Virus record (IMG/VR): IMGVR_UViG_3300045988_141150
DNA from: a virus
DNA: 40,350 nt
Reading direction: 5' to 3' (one strand)
A model generated the notes under the pieces. It was given only the letters and a program-made list of their open reading frames with translations. It was not told the origin of the DNA and did not search any database. Below, one piece after another: positions 24,625 through 39,342 of the stretch. The number at the start of each line of letters is the position of its first letter. Positions within the stretch are counted from its first letter, which is position 1. The position numbers and the translations under genes were made by a program.

Positions 24625-25347
24625 ATGGCTGGTAGTCGTATTTCATGGAGCGATGTTCGCGCTCTATATGATACTTTAAATACTGCTTAGACTCGTTTTT
24701 CTCAATCTCGCACGGCTGCTCCCTCAAATGAGGGGCGTCGTACGAGAGAAAGTGACATTACTACTTTAAAAAATGAAATTGAAAATTTAAGAAATGTTTC
24801 TTATGTAGGAACTTAGGCTACTTTTTCTAATTTTACCGCTCCAAGAGCTAATGAACTTATGAAACGAGTCCCTTTAGAGGAAATTAGAAGTAAACTTGAT
24901 ACTATAAATGGCATTTGCGCCTATGATGGAGCGAATTATACAAGCAATAATGGTTATCGTGGTGCTAACTATACAAGTAATAATAGTCAACGTTCTTCTT
25001 ATTATTCAAGTAATGATGCTCAACGTTCTTCTTATTATTCAAGTAATAATGCTCAACGTGCTTCAGATTATTCAAGTAATAATGCTCAACGTTCTTCAGA
25101 TTATTCAAGTAATAATGCTCAACGTTCTTCAAATTATTCAAGTAACTATACTTATTATACTGCTAATTATTCAAGTAATAATGGTCATAGATCTGCTAAC
25201 TATAGTAGTAATAATGGTAATAGATCTTCTAACTATAGTAGTAATAATTCTCAACGTTCTTCAAATTATTCAAGTAATTATACTTATAGAAGTGCTTATG
25301 CTTCTAGAAGTTCAAATCGTAGTGGCGCTGGTAGAGTACGCTCTTAA
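24625..25347 (+). CDS. Repeat protein of 240 codons with two in-frame TAG. About 12 tandem 11-residue repeats of the form (A/S)xY(S/T)SNNxQRS follow a 100-residue N-terminal region. It is a candidate multi-core RiPP precursor.
   Basis: ATG follows an AAGGAGAGAAT RBS. The frame is continuous with track ORF 24859..25347 through TAG codons at 24688 and 24814. The underlying nucleotides form a 33-nt tandem repeat. Confidence 0.55.
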
Positions 25348-25378: not shown

Positions 25379-26878
25379 ATGTTTAAAGAAATGGATATTA
25401 GAGCAATATCTTTAGTTTCTTCATGTGGATGTAATTTACATTGTAAATATTGTCTTATTGAGAATACTTTAAATAATTGCTCTGCAAATTTACAACATGA
25501 AACTATTAAAGCTTTAAATGATGGTACTTTTTTAAATAATGTAAAAGGTATTTTTAAACGTTTAAATCTTGATAGATATAAAATAGAATGTTTTACTTTA
25601 TGGGGTCAAGAGCCTACATTGACATTACATCTTCTTACTGATCATTTGGAAGATTGGTTTAATTATTTCCCAAATATTAATCATATTGACTATTCTACTA
25701 ATGGGATGGATTTTCCTGAAAGAACTGTTAATTTTATTAAAAAGGTTGATGAATTAGCAAATAATGAACTTGCTTTAGAAGTTCAATTCTCTTATGATGG
25801 CACTTACTCAACCAATAATATTAGAAATGCTAATAATGAAAAAATCTTTGAGACTGCTTCAACTGTAATTAAAGAATTAAATAAAATTAAATTTCATAAT
25901 GTAAATGTATCTATTCAATTACATGGTGTTCTTTCTGGAGCTTTAATTCATGAACTTAATACAACTCAAAAAGTTCATGATTATTATAAAGATTTAGATA
26001 ATTTTGGATTTGAATTAGCTGATATTAATCTTAATTAGAGAGTTGAAGTAAATAGTAGTGTATCTATTTGCCCTGAGAATCCAAGAGATGGATCAGTTGA
26101 TGAACGTATTGAATATGAGTCTTTCTTACAACGCATTGTTAATATTGATGTAAGTGATTTTCATGACCCACATCTTCCAGTTAGTATTATTATTGGTTAT
26201 CGTCATCTTTATGAAGAAGTATTTTCTGATTTACATGGATTTACTGGAGAAGATCGTCCAATTACGCCCCAAGAATTAATGCGATTAGTTATGGAAGGAA
26301 ATCAAGAAGCAATTACTGTAGCTTCAAGAAATAATTTTTGTAGTGGTAATTTTAATGAATTAAAATTACTTTATGATGGTACTATGATGTCTTGTCAAAA
26401 CTTTATGTTTGATCTTGATGGTAATAATGTTAAAGATGATGGTACTATTGGAGCACAATTGAGAAAAGACACTCGTCGCACTAAAACTGATTGCATTAAT
26501 CTTTTAACTGATAGTGAAGAAGATATTAATAAAGTTATATATAAATATAATATGTATAAAACACATTCCTTCCCATTTATGTTTCAAGCAACTGTAAATA
26601 CTTTACAAATGCTTAATGAATGCAATCAATTAAATTCTATTTACAAGTATAATCCTGATAAATTATTAAGATTGGCATTAATTGCAACAAAAATTGATGC
26701 TTGTACTTATAATAATTTTATTTCTTCTGGTAGCGCGTTGTTAAGAAGTGTAGGCACTTTAAGAACTCAATCAGCACTATTTATGTATGTAGATAGAGAA
26801 AATAATTTACTTAAACCCGAAGAAGAATGGTTCCGAAATACTGAAAATATGAATGAATATAGAGGAGAAAGTAATTAA
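25379..26878 (+). CDS. Radical SAM enzyme of about 499 codons with one in-frame TAG at 26036.
   Basis: It carries CGCNLHCKYC, a CxxxCxxC motif. Track ORFs 25379..26038 and 26279..26878 are in the same frame, joined through a TAG with no TAA or TGA between them. Confidence 0.6.
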
Positions 26879-28281
26879 TGAATATTAGTGAAGGTTGTCA
26901 ATTAGATAATAATAAATATTTTGAAAAATTTATAGATAATTATATTTTTAATAGGGATCACCAAGAGGAAGGATACTGGATTAATGGAGAGTCTTTTGAG
27001 CTTATTATAAGACCCGAATGTAATCAACAATGTGAATATTGTTATGTTGCACGGTATGGAGATAAACTCTATCCGATGGAGAAACGCGCCGATAAGGAAA
27101 CTCTTGTTCATAATACAGATATTATTTTGAATTATATCTTTAAAGAAAGAAAAGTTTTATTTCATGAAATGGAACTTTTTGCTGGAGATTTATTTTATGA
27201 TGATATTGGATTTGAAATTCTCGAATTAATGTTTAAATATTATAAAGAATTATTTGATGAACATCCAAATATTTTTAATTTCCATCCTCGTATTGTAATT
27301 CCTAATAATTTTAGTTTTGCTATTGATGATAAAAAAGCTAAAAAAATGGAAGAGCTTTTAGCTAAATTTAAAACTATCAATATGGAAATAAGCCTTTCTT
27401 GTTCTATAGATGGACCTTATAATAGTGTGCGCGAGCGCGATAAAGATGATAGTTATTATACTAAAATTCTTGAATTCCTTCAAAGAAATCCTTGTGGTAT
27501 TCATCCTATGATTTCTCCAAGTAATATTGAGAGTGCTATTAAGAATTTTGATTGGTGGGACGAACAATATGAAAAGTATAATCTTGCTGGTGAAGACATT
27601 CATGATTTTCAACCTATGTATTTGGAAGTCCGCAATGATGAATGGACTGATGAGAAATTAGATCATTATCTTGAATTTTTAACTCATATGCTTGAAGTAA
27701 GATTTCATAAAAATGGTGAGTCTGTAGATAAATTGGCAAGACATATTTTCTTAGGAGATGGAAAAGAAGGTTCTTTACCTTGTCTTGGTAATTATGACCC
27801 TATTGGATTAACTTCTACTTGGAATAGTGAAGAATATACTTGCGCGATTTCGCATTAGACTTGTCTTTATGTGGCGAGTTTTGAATTTGCGCCTTGCCAT
27901 AGAACTTCTTATCCTCAGTTTCTTGGTGGACGTCTTGATGTAAAAGATGACAAAGTAGTTGGTATTACTGCAATTAATCCTACTGTGTATAGTGTAATTA
28001 AAACGAATAATACACATATGAATATTGGTTGTTTAACTTGTCCTTTTGATCCTTATTGTTTAAAAGGATGTTTAGGCGCTCAGTATGAAGCCACAGGTGA
28101 TTTATTTGTTCCCGGTGAAAGCGTTTGTAAATTACATAAAACACATTTAACTTTTTTAGTAAAGACTTATTGTGAGTTGGGATTAACTAAAATTGCAGTT
28201 GAAAAAAATTATTTTAAGAGTGAAGCAGATAAAGAAAAATGGCTTACTTTATGTCGTAAATTGGGGTATTATAATGATTGA
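26878..28281 (+). CDS. Radical SAM/SPASM-domain enzyme of about 467 codons with one in-frame TAG at 27856.
   Basis: It has an N-terminal CNQQCEYC radical SAM motif. Its C-terminal Cys cluster CLTCPFDPYCLKGCLG...VCKLH has the SPASM pattern. Track ORFs 26878..27858 and 27871..28281 are in the same frame. Confidence 0.6.
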
Positions 28282-28576
28282 AGAAATGAAAAGACAAATT
28301 CAACACTTAGATGATACTTTTGATCCTTCTAATGTTGGAGATTATAAAGATTTATTATATGTAATCTATTTAAATTGGATTGAAAATAATGGAGAAAACG
28401 AAGAAGTCAATTCTCTTATTAACAATTTAATTAAAAGAATTATTGATTCTAGCATTAATGATAATAATAATTGTGATAATTGTAATGAAGATGAAGATCC
28501 TAATATGAGTGAAGATTATTTAATTTATCGCCATTTCTTAGGATATAAAATTCCTGGCTATTGGCGTAATCATTAA
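28274..28576 (+). CDS. Small acidic protein of 100 aa. It could be an accessory protein or a precursor.
   Basis: ATG lies in the frame of track ORF 28193..28576 and overlaps the upstream TGA. Confidence 0.45.
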   Translation: MIEEMKRQIQHLDDTFDPSNVGDYKDLLYVIYLNWIENNGENEEVNSLINNLIKRIIDSSINDNNNCDNCNEDEDPNMSEDYLIYRHFLGYKIPGYWRNH

Positions 28577-29157
28577 TGTTAATTAATTTATATAATGCTC
28601 GTCAAACTTTATTAAGATCAGTAAAGTTTGACGAGCGTGAATGCGATGATATTGTTTTTGGATTAAATTTTCCAAAAGAAATTACTTTTTGCAAAATTGT
28701 AAATAATTCAAATGATATAGAATATTCTTCATTAAATTATCTATATAGTCAATTAAAAGATTTAGAATATAAAGATATAAAAATTATTGAATTAGTTTTT
28801 AATCAAAAACAAAAATTTACGTTTGAATCTACAGTAAAATCTATTTTTTATAGAACAATGTTATATTCAAGTTAGGGACAATTGGAATTTAAATTATATT
28901 TAACTTTACGATTTGAAGAAGAACATCCAATTATTTACGATAAAGAAGAATAGATTTTAAAGTGTGACAAAAATTGTAAACAGTTAAATAGAAAAATACA
29001 TCGTTGTGAATTTTTTCATAGTGATTTAAATGATATAAATGAAATTTGTACGGAATGTTTTTTGTAGGAAAGAGATAACCAAATAAAAGAATTGGTTAAT
29101 TATAATAGAGATATTATAAATGTTTTGGAGAATAAATATGGAAATAGATAGAACTAA
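28576..29157 (+). CDS. Hypothetical Cys-containing protein of about 193 codons with four in-frame TAG.
   Basis: It extends track ORF 28576..28875 through TAG codons to a TAA at about 29155. Confidence 0.4.
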
Positions 29158-31216
29158 AAATTATCAAGGGATTCCTCCTTATACTAATCCAATATGGAAA
29201 TCGGTTTATGATGGTGTTAGTTTAGAAATGCATATTGTAGATCATTGTAATCTTAATTGCGCAGGATGTAATCATTTTTCCCCTTTAGCAGAACCTTGGT
29301 ATATTGATTTAGATGATTTCCGTGATCAGATTACTTTTGCTTATAAAAAAATTCCAAATATAAAACTTTTTATGATTTTAGGTGGAGAACCTACTTTGCA
29401 TCCAAAATTATTTGAAATATGTTAGATTGCTAGAGAAGTTTTCCCAAAAAATAAAGTAGAAATTAAAATATTAAGCAATGGGTGTCATTTACAAGATGCT
29501 TTTAAACATGAGAAAGAATATCAAGATATGGGAGTAATATTTGATATTACTACTTATGGGAAATATACTGATCATAAAGCGGTAGAATATTTAGACAGTC
29601 ATGGTTTAGGTTTTAATCATAATTCAAGATTATTTATGCGACAATAGCTTGTAAATGAAGCAGGAACTACTGATATAAATGAAGTATATTTTCATAAATG
29701 CCCGCATTAGTTACCTTGTTTTACTTTAAAAAATTATAAAATTTATATATGTCCTTTTTCTGCACATTTGGATATTTATAGAAAAAAATATAATGTAAAT
29801 ATTCCAGAAGATGAAAGTGATTATTTGCGATTAGAGGATATAAATAATTTAGATGATTTACATAATTTTATTTTTAAGCCTAAAAATATTTGTAGATATT
29901 GCGATGGAACTATGTCTAAAGCCTCTTGGATTTGGCACAAATATTATGATACAAAATCGGAATTTATAGTTCCAATGGAAGATGCTTATTTTAGAGATTA
30001 TGATTTTTATTTAAAATTAGTTAATGATAAAGAAAATTTTTTAGAAAATTATTAGTTATTTAAAGAAAACAGATGCCCAATTGAATTTAGATATAATACT
30101 TATTATTTAAAAAAATGTTTTACTCGTTTTATTGATGGAAAAATGGATATTATAATACCTTATTATAATATGAATGATTAGCAAATTATTAATTTGTATA
30201 ATAATTTATCTACCCAAACAATTATAAAAGATTGTTGTGTATATTTTATTAGCGACCATTCTTTCTATGATAAAAAACTTATTGAGATATTTGATGAAGC
30301 GAGTTTTCCTTGTTTCTTTTTTAAGAATTTAAAACGAAAAGGACCAGGTCTAACTCGTAATTTAGGATTAGAATATTCTTTTAATAAATATGTGTTATTT
30401 TGGGATTCTGATGATTTATTCCCAAATGATAATGTTTTAGAAATTTTATATAATTCAATAAAACATAATGAGAAAGATTTTGGAGTATTTAAAATAGCTA
30501 ATACTGATAAATCAGTTGAAAAGATTAATTTAATTCTTAAAAGAGATTTTCTTAATAAAAATAATATAAAATATTCAAAATTTTTCTTTGGAGAAGACAG
30601 TATTTTCTTGGATAGATGTGATATTTATGGTGAATCTTATGAGTTAGAAGACTAGAATTTAGGTCTTTATATAACTTAGTTAGAAGACAATCCTAATTGT
30701 TTATCTCATTCTAATTCTAACATGGTAATTACAGCATATATTAATAAAATAATTGTATTTTTTGCTAATTTTATTGATGTTTTGAAATTAGAAAATATTG
30801 ATGAAAATCGTAAACAAAGTACTTTAAGACGGAATCTTTATAGAATTATTAATGAAATAAAATCAATAAGTGATTTAGATTCTTCTTTTTATGGATATGA
30901 AAATAATTATTTTTTAGAAAAAATTCTTCTTTTAATTTATTATATTTTATATACTATGTATAATTTATATAGTAACAAAGAAGATTTTAATAATATTCCC
31001 AATTTGTGTAATTTAGATAAACAAATTATAGAAGATATCAAAAGTTAGAAAATTAAATTTAGTCTTCTAAGAGGAGAATGTATAACTAATTTTGATGATA
31101 TTAAAAATGAAATTTATCCATTGTTAAATTATCTTAACAATGAATTATGCTATGTGCCTACTTATGAATGGTTTCTGAATTATTTAGATGGAAAAGGAGA
31201 GAGTATTTATGATTGA
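29138..31216 (+). CDS. Continuous 692-codon frame with 9 in-frame TAG and no TAA or TGA. It has an N-terminal radical SAM domain (CNLNCAGCNH, GGEPTLHP and a C-terminal CRYCDG) and a central GT2 glycosyltransferase domain (IIIPYYN...GPGLTRNLG...FWDSDD). It is one fusion protein or two to three cistrons.
   Basis: Track ORFs 29120..29425, 29768..30055, 30194..30655 and 30722..31048 all share one frame and are separated only by TAG. The frame ends at a TGA at 31214. Confidence 0.5.
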
Positions 31217-31391
31217 AACTTATCAAGAATATAAAGAAAAAGTTTATTTTCTTCTAAATAATTTTTTAGATTTTACTAAAGGAGATAAACCTTATTTATT
31301 TAATATGCCTTCAAAATTAGGCAATCTTCCTAATCTAAATGAATATTTATATTTTTGTTTTAATAAATCTGATGCAGGAGAAAATAAATGA
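31209..31391 (+). CDS. Small protein of 60 aa.
   Basis: ATG follows an AAAGGAGAGAG RBS, in the frame of track ORF 31188..31391. It ends in TGA. Confidence 0.45.
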   Translation: MIETYQEYKEKVYFLLNNFLDFTKGDKPYLFNMPSKLGNLPNLNEYLYFCFNKSDAGENK

Positions 31392-31930
31392 GGTTTACTG
31401 ATTATCATTTTGGATAGGCAGAGTCTGACTTTTGGACTTTATTAAAAGAATTTCTATTAAGGTTTGATCCCAATAGTATTTATGATTTTTGGATTTTATT
31501 TATTTATTTTTAGTTAGGTATTATTAGAAAAGATAGATTTATCATTTATTAGGTATAGTATATTTTAAAAGAAAAAATAGATTTTGAAGAAATTAATGAA
31601 GTAAATTTTAATACAATTATTCCAATAGAAAAGATAAATTTATCTAGTTTAAAAGATTGTATTTGGATAAGCTATTGGATTTGTTAGTATAATTATTAGA
31701 ATGATGAAAATTTAATTTTAATTTATAGTGAGAAAATATTTAATAATCTTACTAATATTTTTGAGCCGGATATTGTTATAGATATTCCAATAGTGTAGTA
31801 GAGTAATAAAATATGTAAAATGTGCGGTTTAGAGTCTAAATCTAATGGATAGAATATACCATTTTTTAAAATAAATGATAATAAATATTTATGTCCTAAT
31901 TGTTATTATTTATTAAAATTAAATGAATAA
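31388..31930 (+). CDS. Hypothetical protein of 180 codons with a C-terminal CxxC...CxxC zinc ribbon. It has about 10 in-frame TAG.
   Basis: ATG overlaps the upstream TGA. The frame is free of TAA and TGA for 543 nt in a region of about 25% GC. It is invisible to the standard-code track. Confidence 0.4.
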
Positions 31931-32023
31931 TTATTAAAACCTACTTTTATAGTAGGTTTTAATTGATTTTTAATAAAAAATAATGTATTATAATTATAAG
32001 ATAAATGAAAAGGGTGTGTTTAT

Positions 32024-33808
32024 GTGAATAATTATAATCAACATTATAAAGAAATAAGTCCTATTGAGACTGTTAATAATATTAAAAATTTTTTAGAAGG
32101 ACGCGGATTTACTTGTGTTGAGGAAGCTTTACGACAAGAACAATCAACTACTTGGAGTCTTGTATTAAATCTTGAATACAAAGGACATTTTGTGCTAAAA
32201 ACTTATGGCAAAGGTGTTACAAAAGAATTCGCCAGAGCTTCTGGTTATGCGGAAATGTATGAGCGTTTTTGTAATGGAATGCACTATCTTTGTAATTCTT
32301 TTCTTTGTGCGGAAAAAATTGAATTAAATAGAAAAAATTATGGTTATTCTTTGTTTAAAAATGAAAAGCCTTTAAGTTATAAAGAGGCACTTGGAGGAGA
32401 AGATACTCTTTTATATAAACTTTTTGATCGTTTGAATAAGAAAGATAATGGTTTATTAGAGGATTATTTTAAAACTATTTATAATAATGAATTTTTTGGA
32501 ATACCATTTAAAGGAGTCAACATTAATAAAACTTTATATATGGATCCTCGTCTTCTTCAACGTTATCATGGTAGTTCGGGAATGGCAGCCGGCAATACTT
32601 TTAATGAAGCCTTAAATCAAGGTTTATCTGAAATTTTCGAGCATTATGTTTTAAGTAATTTTTATATTGATATTGATAATAAAGATTTTTATTTTTATGA
32701 TACAGATAGTATTAAAGATGAAAAATTAAAAAATATTATTAGTGCGATTAAATCTCATAATAATAACTTTTATATTATTGATATGTCAAGAACTTATAAT
32801 GTGCCTGTTATGGTAGCAATTTTGATTAATAAATATAGTGGTACTGTAGCTATTAATTTTGGTGCTTTCCCTGTATTTGAAATTGCAGTTGAGCGAGTTT
32901 GTACTGAAATGTATCAAAATTGTTTTTCTTTTGATACAAGAAAAACTTCAGTTGTATCTCCGTATTATTCTTTAGATAAAGAAGATATGGTTATAGATGG
33001 CGGTTCTTGTATTACAAATCTTAATACTTTTCCTGAGAGTTTATTCTTGAATAAGAAATTTGTAAATACTATTAATAAAGATGTATTTTTATCTTATACT
33101 GATAAAAATTACTCTAATGATGAAATCTTAGAGCATAATAAAAAGATTGCTACTAATATTGGAGCAGATATTTATTGTGCTGATGTATCTTTAATTGATA
33201 CCGTATCTGCGATTAGTATTTATGTTGATAATCTTGACGGGCTATGGAAATCTTTCTTTGATAGATGCCAAGGAGTTAAAGAAACTGGAGAAGCAATTAC
33301 TATAACTAAAAATAAACATTTGGCCATTAAAAACTATTTAAATAATAAAGATAAAGTATATGATGTAATTAAATATTGTCTTGATTATTATAATATTACT
33401 TTTGACAAAATTGTAGATAGATTTTGTGGTTTACTTACTCATGGAGATCAATTAGTTGCTTATAATAATAAAAATATATTATTAACACCTAATGAGATGT
33501 TTGTTAAAAACCTTTATATGGATGCAACAGGATATTTATTAGAAGATGAAGGATTTTCTTTAGATATTTCAGTTAGTTGTTTTTATACTTATTATAAAAA
33601 ATATTTAACTTTATTAGCATATGTTCACAGTAGAAAATATACTAAAGAAGATATGATTAAAATTTTCAAAGAATTTGATTATACTTTTACTGATGAAGAT
33701 TTTAAACATATTACGGATAGAAAATATTTAGTAGAAAAATGTATTTTAGAGCCTATGTATAATACATTTAGAAGCAATGATTTTAAAGAAATGATTAAAA
33801 ATTATTAA
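32024..33808 (+). CDS. YcaO-domain protein of 594 aa.
   Basis: HGSSGMAAGNTFNEALNQGLSEIFEHY matches the YcaO ATP-binding signature, which has the form xGSNGLAsGNTxxEAxxQGLxExxER. The ORF is in the track and has no TAG. Confidence 0.65.
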   Translation: MNNYNQHYKEISPIETVNNIKNFLEGRGFTCVEEALRQEQSTTWSLVLNLEYKGHFVLKTYGKGVTKEFARASGYAEMYERFCNGMHYLCNSFLCAEKIELNRKNYGYSLFKNEKPLSYKEALGGEDTLLYKLFDRLNKKDNGLLEDYFKTIYNNEFFGIPFKGVNINKTLYMDPRLLQRYHGSSGMAAGNTFNEALNQGLSEIFEHYVLSNFYIDIDNKDFYFYDTDSIKDEKLKNIISAIKSHNNNFYIIDMSRTYNVPVMVAILINKYSGTVAINFGAFPVFEIAVERVCTEMYQNCFSFDTRKTSVVSPYYSLDKEDMVIDGGSCITNLNTFPESLFLNKKFVNTINKDVFLSYTDKNYSNDEILEHNKKIATNIGADIYCADVSLIDTVSAISIYVDNLDGLWKSFFDRCQGVKETGEAITITKNKHLAIKNYLNNKDKVYDVIKYCLDYYNITFDKIVDRFCGLLTHGDQLVAYNNKNILLTPNEMFVKNLYMDATGYLLEDEGFSLDISVSCFYTYYKKYLTLLAYVHSRKYTKEDMIKIFKEFDYTFTDEDFKHITDRKYLVEKCILEPMYNTFRSNDFKEMIKNY

Positions 33809-33819
33809 TAGGAGATTAT

Positions 33820-34698
33820 ATGAATATTAATTTTAATTGCCCTGAATTTTACTATGGGATTGAAGTATATGATAAACTTTTTGAATTACAAGAAATTGCT
33901 CCAGAAGCATTTTATCCAGAAGCCAAGGTAAAGTATATATATGGCTGTCTTCCTAATATGATTTGGAATGGTGGCGGATTTATGGATGGACGTCCAGAGC
34001 ATAATATTGATTATCTTTGCGCAATGCGTGATTTTTATGAAAAAAATAATATTATTTTACGTTTTACATTGACAAATCCGCTTTTAGAAGAAACTGACGT
34101 TTATGATAGATACTGTAATGAAATGTTAAAACTTTTTGATAATGGTATTAATGAAATTATTGTTAATTCTCCTATTCTTGAGCGCTATCTTCGAGACAAA
34201 TTTCCTAATTATAAGTTGACTAAAAGTATTACGGCAGCAAAAGAAGATTATGATTTTGTAAAAGCTCTTGATAATTATGAAAGCATTGTCCTTCCTCGTC
34301 GTCACAATAGAAATTGGGAACTTCTTGATTCTATTCCAAAAGATAAAAGAGAGAAAATTGAAATTCTTGCTGATGAAAGTTGTCCTATTGATTGTCCTCG
34401 TCTTTATACTCATTACAATGTTTTTGCAAATTTTAGTTTGTTTAAAAAAATTGATGACTCTCAGCGTAATTGTACTACTATGAAAAATAATGGCGCAGTT
34501 TTTCCTGAAATTGATAATAAAGATATGATTTATATGGATGAAATTTTAAATACTTATTTACCAAAAGGATATAATAATTTTAAGATTTCTGGGCGCAATT
34601 GCGCTGACCATTGTGCAAAATCTATTACTCCGTATTTTTTTAAACCAGAATATCAATTAGAAGGTTTTTGCGAGTTGCTCGATATTGGTTTGAGTTGA
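33820..34698 (+). CDS. Hypothetical protein of 292 aa, possibly a partner of the YcaO protein.
   Basis: The ORF is in the track. It begins 12 nt after the YcaO stop and has several Cys pairs. Confidence 0.5.
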   Translation: MNINFNCPEFYYGIEVYDKLFELQEIAPEAFYPEAKVKYIYGCLPNMIWNGGGFMDGRPEHNIDYLCAMRDFYEKNNIILRFTLTNPLLEETDVYDRYCNEMLKLFDNGINEIIVNSPILERYLRDKFPNYKLTKSITAAKEDYDFVKALDNYESIVLPRRHNRNWELLDSIPKDKREKIEILADESCPIDCPRLYTHYNVFANFSLFKKIDDSQRNCTTMKNNGAVFPEIDNKDMIYMDEILNTYLPKGYNNFKISGRNCADHCAKSITPYFFKPEYQLEGFCELLDIGLS

Positions 34699-35393: not shown

Positions 35394-36809
35394 ATGCCAA
35401 ATACTTATAATCCTTCTGGAACTTCTATAACAGATTATTCTTCTATTAAATTTATTCCAGGAGATATTATTAATAGTAGCTATTCAGGAGCGGTAAATCC
35501 AGTAAAACTTCCAACGGGAAATTATCAATTAGAATGTTGGGGTGGCTATGGTGGAATTGGTTATTCTGGTTCTTTAACTTCATCAACAACAACTTCATGG
35601 ATATATATAGGAACTAATAATGCAACTAGTTATTTTAGCATTAATAATGATTCAAATTATTATTTCCGTCAAGATGGAAATGACTGGATAGCTACAAATG
35701 GCGGTATACATTCAAGTACTGCAACCACTACATTAACTTGTACTTCTGCGGGAACTTACAAGATTTATTATTATTATCAGACTGAAGTAAATTGTGATAA
35801 AGTTACTTTAACTGTTGGAGGATCAACGGTTTTAAATGCCGTATCGGGGTCATAGTCTTTAACTGAAGCTGGTAGCTATTCTTTATCATCAGGGTCTACT
35901 ATTGTAATGACTTATTCTAAAGATAGTTCAGTAAATGCCGACAATGAAGAAGTTTATTTTTAGATTTAGAAATAGGAGAGTAATACTACTTATACTCCCA
36001 CAAGTTCAAAAAATAGTTATTGGGGTGGAGCAGGAGGATATTCTACAGGAATTCTTTCTTTATCAGCCCCTACTGTTATCTATTTGTATACAGGAGGTTA
36101 GGGTAATTATTCAAGTAATAGTGAAAAAGGAAAAGTAGTTAGTGGCGGATTTAACGGAGGAGGTAGCTCTAGAATCAGATGGTATACTTCTGCTTATACA
36201 TCAGGAGGTGGCGGAGGTGGCGCTTCCGATGTTCGTATAGGCCAAGACTCTCTTTACGCCCGTGTAATTGTTGCTGGCGGTGGTGGCGGTGGCGCAGGAG
36301 AAAGCAATTCTTCTATTAAATAGGGCGGTGGATTAACTGGTAATTCTGCTGTTGAAGAATATAAAGCTACGTAGACTAAAGCCGGAACAAATGGATCTTT
36401 TGGCCAAGGGGCTGATGCTAGTGGATCTGCCAATTATAATTATGGTCCCGGTGGTGGTGGTGGAGGCTGGTACGGTGGTGGTGCTTCTACTAATGTTAGT
36501 GACAGTTCCGCCGATTATAGAACTTATAATGGCGGAGGTTCTGGCTATGTATATACTTCATCAACTGCCTCTAATTATCCTTCTGGCTGTTTGTTAAATA
36601 GTAATTATTATTTAACAAATGCTTCTACTGCTATAGGATATAGTAAAACCAATCCAGGAGGGCAACATGGGTATATTCGTATTACAGTATTATCTCCATT
36701 AAATGTAAAAATTAATCCTAACACCTATGCTCCTATTAAAGCAATATATACAAAAATAGATAACACAACTTGGAAAGGAGGAATGACTACATGGCAACCT
36801 ATGACTTAA
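35394..36809 (+). CDS. Glycine-rich tail-fibre-like protein of 471 codons with 7 in-frame TAG.
   Basis: Track ORFs 35394..35855, 36352..., and 36591..36809 share one frame. The N-terminus contains LPTGNYQLECWGGYGG. The C-terminus contains SGYVYTSSTASNYPSGCLLNS...GYIRITV. Confidence 0.55.
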
Positions 36810-38128
36810 CTTCTTCGATTCCTTCTTCTTCTTCTTTAAGAACGGGGGATATATTAAATTGTCCTTATAGTGGATCTGCTAAATCAATTACTCTTCCAAA
36901 AGGCACTTATAAATTAGAATGTTGGGGAGCACAAGGTGGAAATGCAGGTTATTATAGTTATGTTCATTCAACCCCTAATGGAGGAAAAGGTGGATACTCT
37001 ACTGGTGTAATCACTTTATCTTCAAGTGTTATAGTATATCTTTATACCGGAGGACAAGGAGGAAGTACTATCGGGAATAAGCTAGACTAGAATTCAGTAG
37101 CTACAGCACCTGGTGGATTTAATGGAGGTGGCATCGCTAATCAAATGGGAGCCGCTGGTGGTGGTGGAGCTTCTGATATTCGCATAGGCCAAGATTCTCT
37201 CTATGCTCGTATAATCGTCGCTGGAGGCGGTGGTGGTGGAGGCAATGCGAGTAGTTCTACTTTATTATCTTGTGGCGGAAATGGTGGAGGAACTACTGGT
37301 GGAACTCCACCTAATTAGCACAATAATAGAACCCCAGGAAAAGGAGGAACTCAAACTGGAATAACAGCTAGTCGTTCATCATCAATTTCTGCGGGATTTG
37401 GTAATGGAGCTGGTGGTACGGGAGAAAATCTTCGTGGAGCCGGTGGCGGTGGCTGGTATGGTGGAACTATGGGTGAAAATTCAACTGGCGGAGGTGGAGG
37501 TTCTGGTTATGTATATACTTCCTCAACTGCTTCTAATTATCCATCTGGTTGCTTATTGAATAGCACTCATTATCTTAGTTCTGCTTCTACAATAGCTGGC
37601 GACACTTCATTCACTTCTCCAACAGGGTCATCTGAAACAGGTCATAGCGGAAACGGGTATATAAGAATTACTATTTAGTCTATTGTTAACTGGGCTTATT
37701 CTACTGTATCAATTCCTGCTCCTACTTATAGTAAATAGGATACTTCTTCTTGGACTTTATCTCCGAGTGCTTGCAGGTATTTTTCTTTTACCCCTACTAT
37801 TTCAGGAGATTTTATTGTTTATTCCAATTCTTCAATAGATACTTTTGGCTATTTAACATCAAATATTGTTTCTCTTAATAGTAGTGGATAGCCTTCTTCT
37901 AATATTTTAGCTAGTGATGATGATTAGGCAAAAAAATATGGTGGATCTGGAAGTAATTTTGGTATTTGTTATAAAGTTACTGCTGGAACTACTTATTATA
38001 TATATGTTAAGCCTTATCGTGATAGTACAGCAAATAGTTCAGTATATTTAACTTATTATATGGCTCATCCTGACAGTAGAGTATATGTAAAAACAGATAG
38101 TACAACATGGAAATTAATAACCAATTAA
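36791..38128 (+). CDS. Glycine-rich tail-fibre-like protein of 445 codons with about 8 in-frame TAG. It is a paralogue of the gene at 35394..36809.
   Basis: It shares LPKGTYKLECWGAQGG, SDIRIGQDSLYARIIVAGGGGGG and SGYVYTSSTASNYPSGCLLNS...GNGYIRITI with the upstream gene. It ends at a TAA at 38126. Confidence 0.55.
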
Positions 38129-38165: not shown

Positions 38166-38299
38166 ATATTTATAAAATAAAGAAAGACCTTTACAGCAAA
38201 AATAACTTCCAGAATAAACTAATGATTAAGTCATAATCCTTTAAGATTAAAATAATGGTTCAACTCCATTTTCCGGACAAAGTTAAGGTCTTGTTTTTA

Positions 38300-38794: not shown

Positions 38795-39342
38795 GGGAGT
38801 GTAGCTCAGTTGGTTAGAGCACGCGGCTGTTTACTTGACCTTATCATTTTCTTATAAAAAAATGAAATGAATAGTAAACAAAAAGGTAATATTACCGAGC
38901 TTGAAACAATGTTAGCATTTATGAAACTTGGTTATAATGTTCTTACTCCTTACGGAGATTGTGAGCGTTATGATTTTGTGGTTGATGTAAATGGTAAATT
39001 TATTAGAATTCAAGCTAAAACATCGCGAACCGAAGATGAAGGAGCTTCTTTTATTTTTTCTGGTAGAAGTTGCCATAGAAAAGATGGAAGAATAGTTCAT
39101 CATCAATATACTAACGAAGAAATTGATTACTTCGTAACTACTTTTAATGGAAAATGTTATTTGATTCCAGTGGAAGAGTGCGGAGCAGATAAAAGACTTC
39201 GTATTCTTCCACCTAAAAACAATCAAGTAAGAGGTATTACTTGGGCGAAAGATTATGAGTTGGAGGAAGTAGTAAGAAAATGGTAAGCTGATGTGTAAGC
39301 AACCGCGGTTTGTCGTGAGTTCGAGTCTCTCCTCTCCCGCCA
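38795..39342 (+). tRNA. Interrupted tRNA gene, tRNA-Asp-like with an inferred anticodon GUC. The 5' half is 38795..38830 and the 3' half is 39300..39342. A 469-bp insertion in the anticodon loop separates them.
   Basis: The 5' half reads GGGAGTG-TA-GCTCAGTTGGTTAGAGC-A-CGCGG-CTGT. The 3' half reads CAA-CCGCG-GTTTGTC-GTGAG-TTCGAGT-CTCTC-CTCTCCC-G-CCA. The anticodon stem CGCGG pairs with CCGCG perfectly. The acceptor stem pairs 6 of 7. The D loop resembles tRNA-Asp. Confidence 0.55.
38867..39286 (+). CDS. PD-(D/E)xK nuclease of 139 aa encoded inside the tRNA insertion. It resembles Hjc and I-Ssp6803I and is a candidate homing endonuclease.
   Basis: The ORF is in the track. The motifs ELETML (E), GDCERYDFVVDV (D) and IRIQAKTS (Q/E-x-K) occur in the order and spacing of the Hjc / I-Ssp6803I fold. 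Confidence 0.55.
   Translation: MNSKQKGNITELETMLAFMKLGYNVLTPYGDCERYDFVVDVNGKFIRIQAKTSRTEDEGASFIFSGRSCHRKDGRIVHHQYTNEEIDYFVTTFNGKCYLIPVEECGADKRLRILPPKNNQVRGITWAKDYELEEVVRKW

Follow-up and report, generated by a model that had tools for sequence, protein, structure and literature searches.

The reading of TAG as glutamine in the late genes of large gut phages has already been published (bioRxiv 10.1101/2021.08.26.457843; PMC9523058), and metaproteomics has confirmed it in crAss-like gut phages (PMC9523058). Here, we analyzed a stretch of 40,350 nucleotides from the IMG/VR virus record IMGVR_UViG_3300045988_141150, hereafter called the window, with a focus on a frame at 29138..31216 on the plus strand that joins a radical SAM domain to a GT2 glycosyltransferase domain and contains in-frame TAG codons. 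When compared to the gut phages using genetic code 15 (crAss-like, Lak, Jade, Sapphire and Agate; bioRxiv 10.1101/2021.08.26.457843), nothing essential differs: TAG is concentrated in late and structural genes, early genes are TAG-free, a suppressor tRNA(CUA) is present in close relatives, and we are dealing with an AT-rich phage of ~195 kb from the human gut. The window itself is devoid of a suppressor tRNA and of a release-factor gene. The size of ~195 kb and the presence of mixed-code relatives (TAG-sense, TGA-sense or standard) are as described for the Jade, Sapphire and Agate clades (bioRxiv 10.1101/2021.08.26.457843). The TAG recoding seen here is textbook code 15 and as such not new.

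Both enzyme halves of the encoded protein are clear members of known superfamilies. The closest described relative of the radical SAM half is SpeY (7wzv), a twitch radical SAM dehydrogenase from the biosynthetic pathway of spectinomycin, with BtrN being more distant. Shared with SpeY are the CX3CX2C motif, the GGE motif and four auxiliary cysteines at a sequence identity of 21-22% (profile E value 3e-12). SpeY is a stand-alone actinomycete enzyme whose substrate is a small-molecule glycoside, whereas the SpeY-like domain described here is fused to a glycosyltransferase and resides in a phage. The glycosyltransferase half shares the GT-A fold, the N-terminal IIIPxYN strand, the DxD and ED motifs and the helices following the core with TarS (5tze), TarP (6h1j) and RmlT (8bz4) at 19-22% identity, a likeness that concerns the overall fold and not the acceptor. 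These three enzymes lack a radical SAM domain, and C-terminal trimerization or carbohydrate-binding modules of the TarS type were not identified in the fusion protein. In bacteria, the same SpeY-like family (~30% identity) is paired with GT2 in the loci L142 and L116 (Gastranaerophilales metagenome-assembled genome, MAG), a pairing that implies a shared substrate. The bacterial loci differ in that the GT2 comes first or the genes are split, in their Wzx-type polysaccharide surroundings and in their use of the standard code. A further likeness, which concerns the neighbors of the fusion gene and not the fusion protein, is that to the triceptide systems (3-CyFEs, enzymes that form cyclophanes of three residues, such as XncB, MscB and YhhB; PMC11002830) and to the His-Xaa-Ser pair HxsB/HxsC, since a protein with aromatic-x-Ser/Asn repeats is encoded directly upstream of radical SAM genes; the underlying matches lie far below the curated cut-offs, and the triceptide and Hxs systems use a short peptide as substrate, whereas the putative substrate here is a protein of 170-250 amino acids. 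No characterized fusion of a SpeY-like enzyme with a TarS/TarP-like GT2, nor the phage module in which it resides, was found in our comparisons with the literature, PDB or BFVD.

A single gene with eight sense TAG codons

With high probability, the frame at 29138..31216 (+) is a single protein-coding gene carried by a large gut phage (~195 kb) in whose late genes TAG stands for glutamine (genetic code 15). It comprises 692 sense codons without a single TAA or internal TGA, ends with a TGA at 31214-31216 and is the longest frame free of TAA and TGA in the whole window. Given the local base composition (A 0.38, T 0.39; the G+C content of the gene is 23%), about 39 TAA and about 15 TGA would be expected in 692 codons, and the probability of encountering neither is ~6e-25. 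The remaining two frames over the same interval contain 27 and 63 TAA. The initial annotation of this DNA had described the 692-codon frame correctly but counted nine TAG codons; there are eight, as the ninth asterisk in the translation is the terminal TGA. They are located at 29423, 29645, 29708, 30053, 30179, 30653, 30677 and 31046 (codons 96, 170, 191, 306, 348, 506, 514 and 637) and thus span 29423..31048 (+). When translated with table 11, the frame is split into six pieces of 101, 39, 95, 153, 108 and 31 amino acids, and the JGI/IMG gene calls in relatives contain pieces matching those of 101 and 153 amino acids, two pieces being named 'radical SAM enzyme' and 'glycosyltransferase'.

Both ends of the gene carry recognizable signals. 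Since a GGAG Shine-Dalgarno core is found 7 nucleotides before the ATG at 29138, this start is preferred over the ATG at 29120. At the distal end, the next gene (60 amino acids, 31209..31391, +) shares its first 8 nucleotides with the fusion gene, and its ATG is preceded by an AAGGAG core, an example of a real local cistron boundary. The comparison with relatives of ~95% identity further reveals 22, 10 and 61 substitutions at codon positions 1, 2 and 3, with 61 synonymous and 27 non-synonymous codons. This bias towards the third position is present in each segment of the gene, also past every TAG, and the same frame is therefore under purifying selection on either side of every TAG.

The alignments point to glutamine as the residue inserted at TAG. 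Three relatives share ~95% DNA identity with the window; at codon 360, the window and L012 have CAA, L001 and L013 have TAG, and Gln360 is invariant in 45 homologues (alignments A2 and A3). Across the twelve family genes for which DNA is available, every TAG/non-TAG difference between near-identical pairs (5/5) is an exchange of TAG with CAA or CAG, and glutamine is 5-fold enriched at TAG columns (9% versus a background of 1.8%). The TAG sites differ nearly all between the lineages L002, L004, L006 and L026-31. Because they shift in this way, unlike conserved terminators, TAG is to be regarded as a sense codon; the alignment of TAG positions with homologues that the initial annotation had proposed thus yields exchanges with glutamine codons and unconserved sites. 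Consistently, all 29 listed genes of the window stop at TAA or TGA and none at TAG. The genes between 5.6 and 24 kb are essentially without TAG, and individual genes from 24.6 to 38.1 kb have as many as nine, the early/late split described in stop-codon-recoded gut phages (bioRxiv 10.1101/2021.08.26.457843). A public protein of 692 amino acids, P0001, is 96% identical to the window protein and has Q at all eight sites. As its DNA (L001) has TAG at these eight sites, the gene caller of the source had already used a TAG-sense code.

That the protein is a single polypeptide can be concluded without any assumption on TAG, since two relatives keep the whole protein in one frame under other codes: in L032 (IMG/VR, 114 kb, 37% G+C) the fusion is a single standard-code open reading frame (ORF) of 689 amino acids without TAG, and in L014 (175 kb) it is a single frame of 713 codons interrupted only by four in-frame TGA, one of which falls on a conserved Trp column. 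The same fusion protein is hence kept intact under three genetic codes, TAG-sense, TGA-sense and standard. The family is well populated. Our search listed 81 clusters (90% identity) with strong matches over the whole query (E value ≤6e-52), nearly all of which are 630-710 amino acids in length and possess both Pfam domains, and ~35 representatives (50% identity) align in one piece with almost all 672 positions of the profile.

The eight TAG codons would, in all likelihood, be read by a phage-encoded tRNA(CUA) whose identity features are of the glutamine type. The tRNA array of the window runs on beyond the window end, and in relatives of ~95% identity (L016, L017 and L020; IMG/VR contigs of 194-197 kb) this array contains a tRNA(CUA) gene (L016 13580-13652, L017 13432-13521, L020 14399-14488; Rfam 52.3 bits) ~10.4 kb downstream of the position corresponding to the window's first tRNA (38208), i.e. 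~8 kb past the window end. It bears U1-C72, G2-C71, G10, U35 and G73, which correspond to glutamine identity elements. Because the TAG codons would be decoded by this phage tRNA, full-length fusion protein would be made only once the suppressor is expressed, as has been proposed for the late genes of recoded phages.

The tRNA array holds further features. ARAGORN also calls a tRNA(UCA) in L016 (14931-15010) and L017 (14794-14873), though TGA is a stop here, and this call fails the Rfam gathering threshold. In the window, a tRNA-like gene at 38208-38278 (+; Rfam tRNA 37.5 bits) combines an anticodon stem of 5 bp with a loop of only 6 nucleotides, CUUUAA, for which ARAGORN gives a two-base anticodon. 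It is kept in the ~95%-identical relatives, with the loop being AUUUAA in L012, and the same slot, right before tRNA-Trp, is occupied by a normal tRNA-Gln(UUG) in the 63% relative L002, so that the gene could be a degenerate or unconventional tRNA derived from tRNA-Gln. Within the array lies also an ORF of 139 amino acids of the PDDEXK_5 nuclease family (38867-39286, +), and an identical protein is encoded on several human-gut metagenome contigs.

Domain architecture of the fusion protein

The gene product consists of three parts, a SpeY-like twitch radical SAM domain, a helical linker and a GT2 domain followed by a C-terminal helical extension like that of TarS/TarP/RmlT. The order of a radical SAM followed by a GT2 domain in one frame, which the initial annotation had noticed, is confirmed by Pfam matches above the curated cut-offs (Radical_SAM, PF04055, amino acids 33-129, 31.5 bits versus 29.5; Glycos_transf_2, amino acids 338-482, 45 bits versus 23.3), and Fer4_12 also exceeds its cut-off in the first third of the protein. 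An AlphaFold2 model of P0001, computed with the family alignment, is compact with a mean predicted local distance difference test score (pLDDT) of 91.5 and a predicted template modeling score (pTM) of 0.90. The latter value indicates a fixed arrangement of the domains.

The N-terminal domain (amino acids 1-305, 29138..30052, +) shows a fold match to radical SAM enzymes in addition to the profile match to SpeY. Its CX3CX2C motif for the radical SAM [4Fe-4S] cluster (C37, C41 and C44; 29246..29269, +) is invariant and aligns with CNMRCQSC of SpeY, and the GGE motif (amino acids 82-84, 29381-29389, +) is likewise invariant in the 45-sequence alignments. The cysteines of the presumed auxiliary cluster, C188, C194, C205, C252 and C255, lie at 29699..29902 (+). 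In the same alignments, C205, C252 and C255 are invariant and C194 is conserved in at least 90% of the sequences. Since C188, C205, C252 and C255 align with the four SpeY cysteines, an auxiliary cluster of the twitch type, as defined in PMC10114671, fits the protein.

The interdomain linker (amino acids 306-334, 30053..30139, +) starts at the TAG codon at 30053, and its translation stays in frame; two helices are predicted here with high pLDDT (residues 298-309 and 321-333). The GT2 domain with its GT-A fold follows at amino acids 335-505 (30140..30652, +). The GT-A fold, the DxD motif (D423-S-D425, 30404-30412) and the acidic ED residue (E486-D487) of the GT2 (GT-A, inverting) family are all present. 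The invariant or near-invariant positions are D337-IIIP341, D373, G402-P-G404, R407, D423-x-D425 and E486-D487, and the GPGxxRN, DxD and ED signatures are invariant over the family. The remaining C-terminal region of about 180 residues, the existence of which had also been noticed before, is all-helical in the P0001 model (amino acids 506-692, 30653..31213, +; helices 527-683). Its sequence is kept only among closer relatives (37-39% in L002 and L026), and substitutions at codon positions 1, 2 and 3 number 6, 6 and 20. Because the Foldseek alignments to TarP, TarS and RmlT cover 333-369 columns, longer than the GT-A core, and extend into the helical region, it is best read as a helical extension of this glycosyltransferase subgroup. 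BFVD contains no full-length analogue of the protein (query-based TM score, TMq, ≤0.33) and PHROGs gave nothing significant for it. Megablast of 24 kb of the window against the INPHARED phages returned no match, and tblastn of the fusion protein against the same phages returned only a distant cyanophage radical SAM protein.

The gene module around the fusion gene

The fusion gene resides in a conserved late module. A repeat protein of 240 amino acids is encoded at 24625..25347 (+), with a conserved N-terminal domain of ~100 amino acids and C-terminal repeats. About a dozen of these are 11-residue repeats of the NYSSNNxQRSS type, and homologues in relatives carry FSSNF, YNSSFNSS or SYRASY. The radical SAM enzymes of triceptide pathways cross-link aromatic-x-(Ser/Asn/Arg) motifs (PMC11002830), which the repeats resemble. 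Directly downstream lie a radical SAM protein of 499 amino acids (25379..26878, +), with weak Pfam and NCBIfam matches to peptide-maturase radical SAM families, and a radical SAM/SPASM protein of 467 amino acids (26878..28281, +), with the CX3CX2C motif at CNQQCEYC, SPASM-like cysteines and weak NCBIfam matches to SPASM, HxsB and YhhB. This radical SAM pair, with members of about 470 amino acids, is syntenic in all fusion loci for which the DNA extends far enough, and homologues of the repeat protein adjoin it in most fusion loci (L004, L026, L028, L029, L031 and L032).

Downstream of the fusion gene, a YcaO-domain protein (32009..33808, +; PF02624, E value 5e-28; start probably GTG near 32024) and a U32-like protein of 292 amino acids (33820..34698, +; weak PF01136 match below the cut-off) are encoded. 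The YcaO gene is present in only some fusion loci, whereas the U32-like gene is kept in all that extend far enough. The loci L004 and L006 add genes for ThiF, GT8, a methyltransferase (Methyltransf_21), a Na/sulphate-type symporter (Na_sulph_symp) and a chorismate mutase. The YcaO and U32-like genes (32009-34698) contain no TAG though they lie inside the TAG-rich block, and the same is true in L002, whereas their L004 homologues contain 10 and 9 TAG; lineages may differ in when these genes are expressed or in how long ago they were acquired.

This radical SAM family is repeatedly associated with GT2, namely as the phage fusions, as split adjacent genes (L045 and L116) and as a fusion in reverse order in L142. 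The latter, from a Lachnospiraceae MAG, has the order GT2-radical SAM and adjoins a Wzx-like flippase, another GT2 and two radical SAM/SPASM genes, and architectures with the glycosyltransferase first are numerous in our representative library. That fusion has occurred repeatedly and in either order speaks for a common substrate of the two activities. Stand-alone genes of the SpeY-like family (~255-275 amino acids) also occur as tandem arrays of three to five paralogues in the unrelated phage contigs L043, L044, L052 and L054 (IMG/VR, 49-234 kb), which suggests that phages employ this sugar-radical enzyme family more widely. In L064 (CAYLJU010000010.1, a 50.6-kb contig of 22% G+C from a Muribaculaceae MAG bin), the fusion family appears fragmented under the standard code; the contig probably derives from a recoded phage and was placed in the bacterial bin by mistake.

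Two small TAG-rich ORFs flank the fusion gene, one of 193 amino acids with 4 TAG (28576-29157, +) and one of 180 amino acids with 9 TAG and no CAA or CAG (31388-31930, +). Both end in a zinc-ribbon-like CxxC...CxxC motif and are conserved in the closest lineages only (L002 and L026). Across the fusion gene and its small neighbors (~28000-33000), the G+C content falls to 0.20-0.25, compared to 0.35-0.40 in most of the window, and the GC skew is positive from ~6 kb to the window end. Further downstream, two adjacent paralogous glycine-rich proteins of 471 and 445 amino acids, with 7 and 6 TAG, are encoded at 35394-38128 (+). The former matches the Pfam family ALK_LTK_GRD (PF12810, E value 4e-35) and both match PHROG 1589/5811; they are probably tail-fibre-like late proteins.

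Proposed action and acceptor

By analogy with SpeY and BtrN, we tentatively propose a transfer-then-tailor mechanism, to which we give somewhat less than even odds. In this mechanism, the GT2 half would transfer a nucleotide-activated sugar onto an acceptor, and the radical SAM half would then abstract a hydrogen from a sugar carbon of the resulting glycoside. The hydroxyl-bearing carbon would be oxidized or epimerized, as SpeY and BtrN do on their sugar or cyclitol substrates, and the fusion would channel the transfer and tailoring steps. Our best candidate for the acceptor is the co-conserved repeat protein (24625..25347) with its aromatic-x-Ser/Asn repeats, an assignment we make at low confidence. 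The two neighboring radical SAM enzymes would probably also modify this protein, resulting in a cross-linked, glycosylated phage protein. In its widest form, the proposal would make the fusion protein the glycosylating and sugar-tailoring step of a conserved late phage pathway that resembles those of peptides made by the ribosome and modified after translation (RiPPs), acts on a whole protein, which it would render heavily cross-linked and glycosylated, is virus-encoded and spans three genetic codes. Such a pathway would comprise the two radical SAM/SPASM enzymes, the U32-like protein and in some phages YcaO/ThiF, GT8 and the methyltransferase, and we regard it as doubtful.

Alternative readings

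Several observations weigh against the reading developed so far. A tRNA(CUA) was not found inside the 40,350-nucleotide window, and a suppressor in the window's phage is presumed from its relatives. Glutamine as the TAG residue is likewise presumed, in this case from alignments, and in distant homologues N, K, D, E or hydrophobic residues stand at several TAG columns; among them is that of codon 306 in the linker, where Gln is absent from every relative without TAG. The structure was modeled on P0001 instead of the window protein. For the neighbors, the NCBIfam matches (YhhB, HxsB, PapB and SPASM) reach 17-26 bits versus cut-offs of 27-445, and because they are so far below cut-off, the triceptide likeness of these proteins can serve as a lead only. 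Finally, the closest glycosyltransferase structures act on teichoic acid polymers and not on proteins, and the bacterial homologues lie in polysaccharide loci, pointing to a glycan acceptor.

The last two points lead to a reading in which the protein is the same and its acceptor is not a protein. Instead, host wall teichoic acid, capsule, lipopolysaccharide or a phage glycan would be modified, as in a TarP-like conversion of the host surface. Next to the teichoic acid specificity of TarS, TarP and RmlT and the polysaccharide locus with a Wzx-like flippase in bacteria, the GT8, methyltransferase and transporter genes alongside the module in L004 and L006 would be in line with this reading. On the other hand, the fusion gene travels with two radical SAM genes, and in most loci with the repeat protein, the window module showed no gene for a flippase, polymerase or lipid carrier, and the fusion gene lies in a TAG-rich late block beside tail-fibre-like genes. 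We thus consider a glycan or teichoic-acid-like acceptor possible at a similarly low level of confidence, about as likely as the repeat protein.

The readings that concern the decoding of the frame fare far worse. Host release factor 1 (RF1) could compete with the suppressor at the linker TAG, so that deliberately leaky decoding would yield a stand-alone radical SAM isoform next to the full fusion. Such a switch is conceivable, given that TAG306 is common to two lineages just 58% identical to each other, that stand-alone SpeY-like radical SAM proteins of 255-300 amino acids are common, and that code switching during infection has been proposed for recoded phages (bioRxiv 10.1101/2021.08.26.457843). 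However, three TAG precede codon 306, because of which truncation would mostly occur inside the radical SAM domain, before the end of the putative isoform. Moreover, most lineages have no TAG at column 306, and the standard-code L032 has no stop there. This makes leaky decoding improbable.

The initial annotation had raised TAG as a context-dependent stop at 30053 and/or 30653, which would result in two or three cistrons, with the GT2 restarting at Met336 (30143). It is true that TAG306 falls exactly into the interdomain linker and is also TAG in the L026/L027 lineage, that an in-frame ATG is present at 30143, and that split radical SAM and GT2 genes exist. The latter are, however, found only in the distant phage contig L045 (27% identity, different frames) and in the bacterial MAG L116, whereas separate genes were encountered in none of the nine lineages examined that bear the fusion. 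At column 306, L002, L004, L006, L029/L031, L014 and L032 have N, C, L or F codons, and they have no TAG at 506. From TAG306 to Met336, the 30 intervening residues show 62-71% identity in L002 and L026-28, compared to 58-63% overall, and since this stretch is conserved as protein, the linker residues are translated. The proposed internal starts do not hold either. Of the two, the ATG at 30143 is in frame, whereas the one placed at 30116 lies at 30115-30117, out of frame, and is rejected. The start at 30143 is rejected as Met336 is unconserved, being replaced by Ile in most homologues (motif GKIDIIIPYYN), and as it lacks a Shine-Dalgarno site: only GGA precedes it, whereas an AGGAG-type core of 4-8 nucleotides is found at 15 of the 19 real gene starts in this region. 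The continuous frames of L032 and L014 and the fixed interdomain arrangement predicted by the model further argue against separate cistrons, which we consider highly improbable. What remains is the single radical SAM-glycosyltransferase fusion that had been envisaged for the case that TAG is sense. The accompanying view that either outcome would be unusual was overstated, as the recoding is published and the fusion is a populated family.

It is also highly improbable that TAG encodes another amino acid, e.g. pyrrolysine, Ser, Tyr, Leu or Lys. ARAGORN labels the tRNA(CUA) of the relatives 'Pyl', and N, K, D or E are found at many TAG columns in distant homologues, but the recent exchanges of TAG are all with CAA or CAG, one TAG falls on an invariant Gln, that tRNA(CUA) bears the glutamine-type features listed above, metaproteomics shows TAG as glutamine in other gut phages (PMC9523058), and no pyl gene was seen in the window. 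The reading of the frame as a decayed pseudogene or as unrelated short ORFs under the standard code, to which the six table 11 fragments and their annotation by JGI/IMG in relatives would correspond, can practically be dismissed in view of the complete lack of TAA in 692 codons, the strong third-position substitution bias over all segments, the invariant catalytic residues and the high confidence of the predicted fold.

Implications

Gene callers applying the standard code shred the fusion gene, and reading TAG as glutamine restores a bifunctional enzyme together with its whole module. The presence of one family under TAG-sense, TGA-sense and standard codes serves as an internal control, confirming both the sense reading of the in-frame stops and the fusion itself. 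On the level of chemistry, a SpeY-like enzyme tied to a TarS/TarP-like GT2 suggests that transfer and subsequent tailoring may occur on one polypeptide. If the repeat protein is indeed the acceptor, jumbo phages abundant in the human gut would be equipped with an elaborate pathway for protein maturation, the chemistry of which, radical cross-links and modified glycans, is usually tied to bacterial natural products. Such a pathway would have a bearing on the surface properties of the virion and on host recognition.

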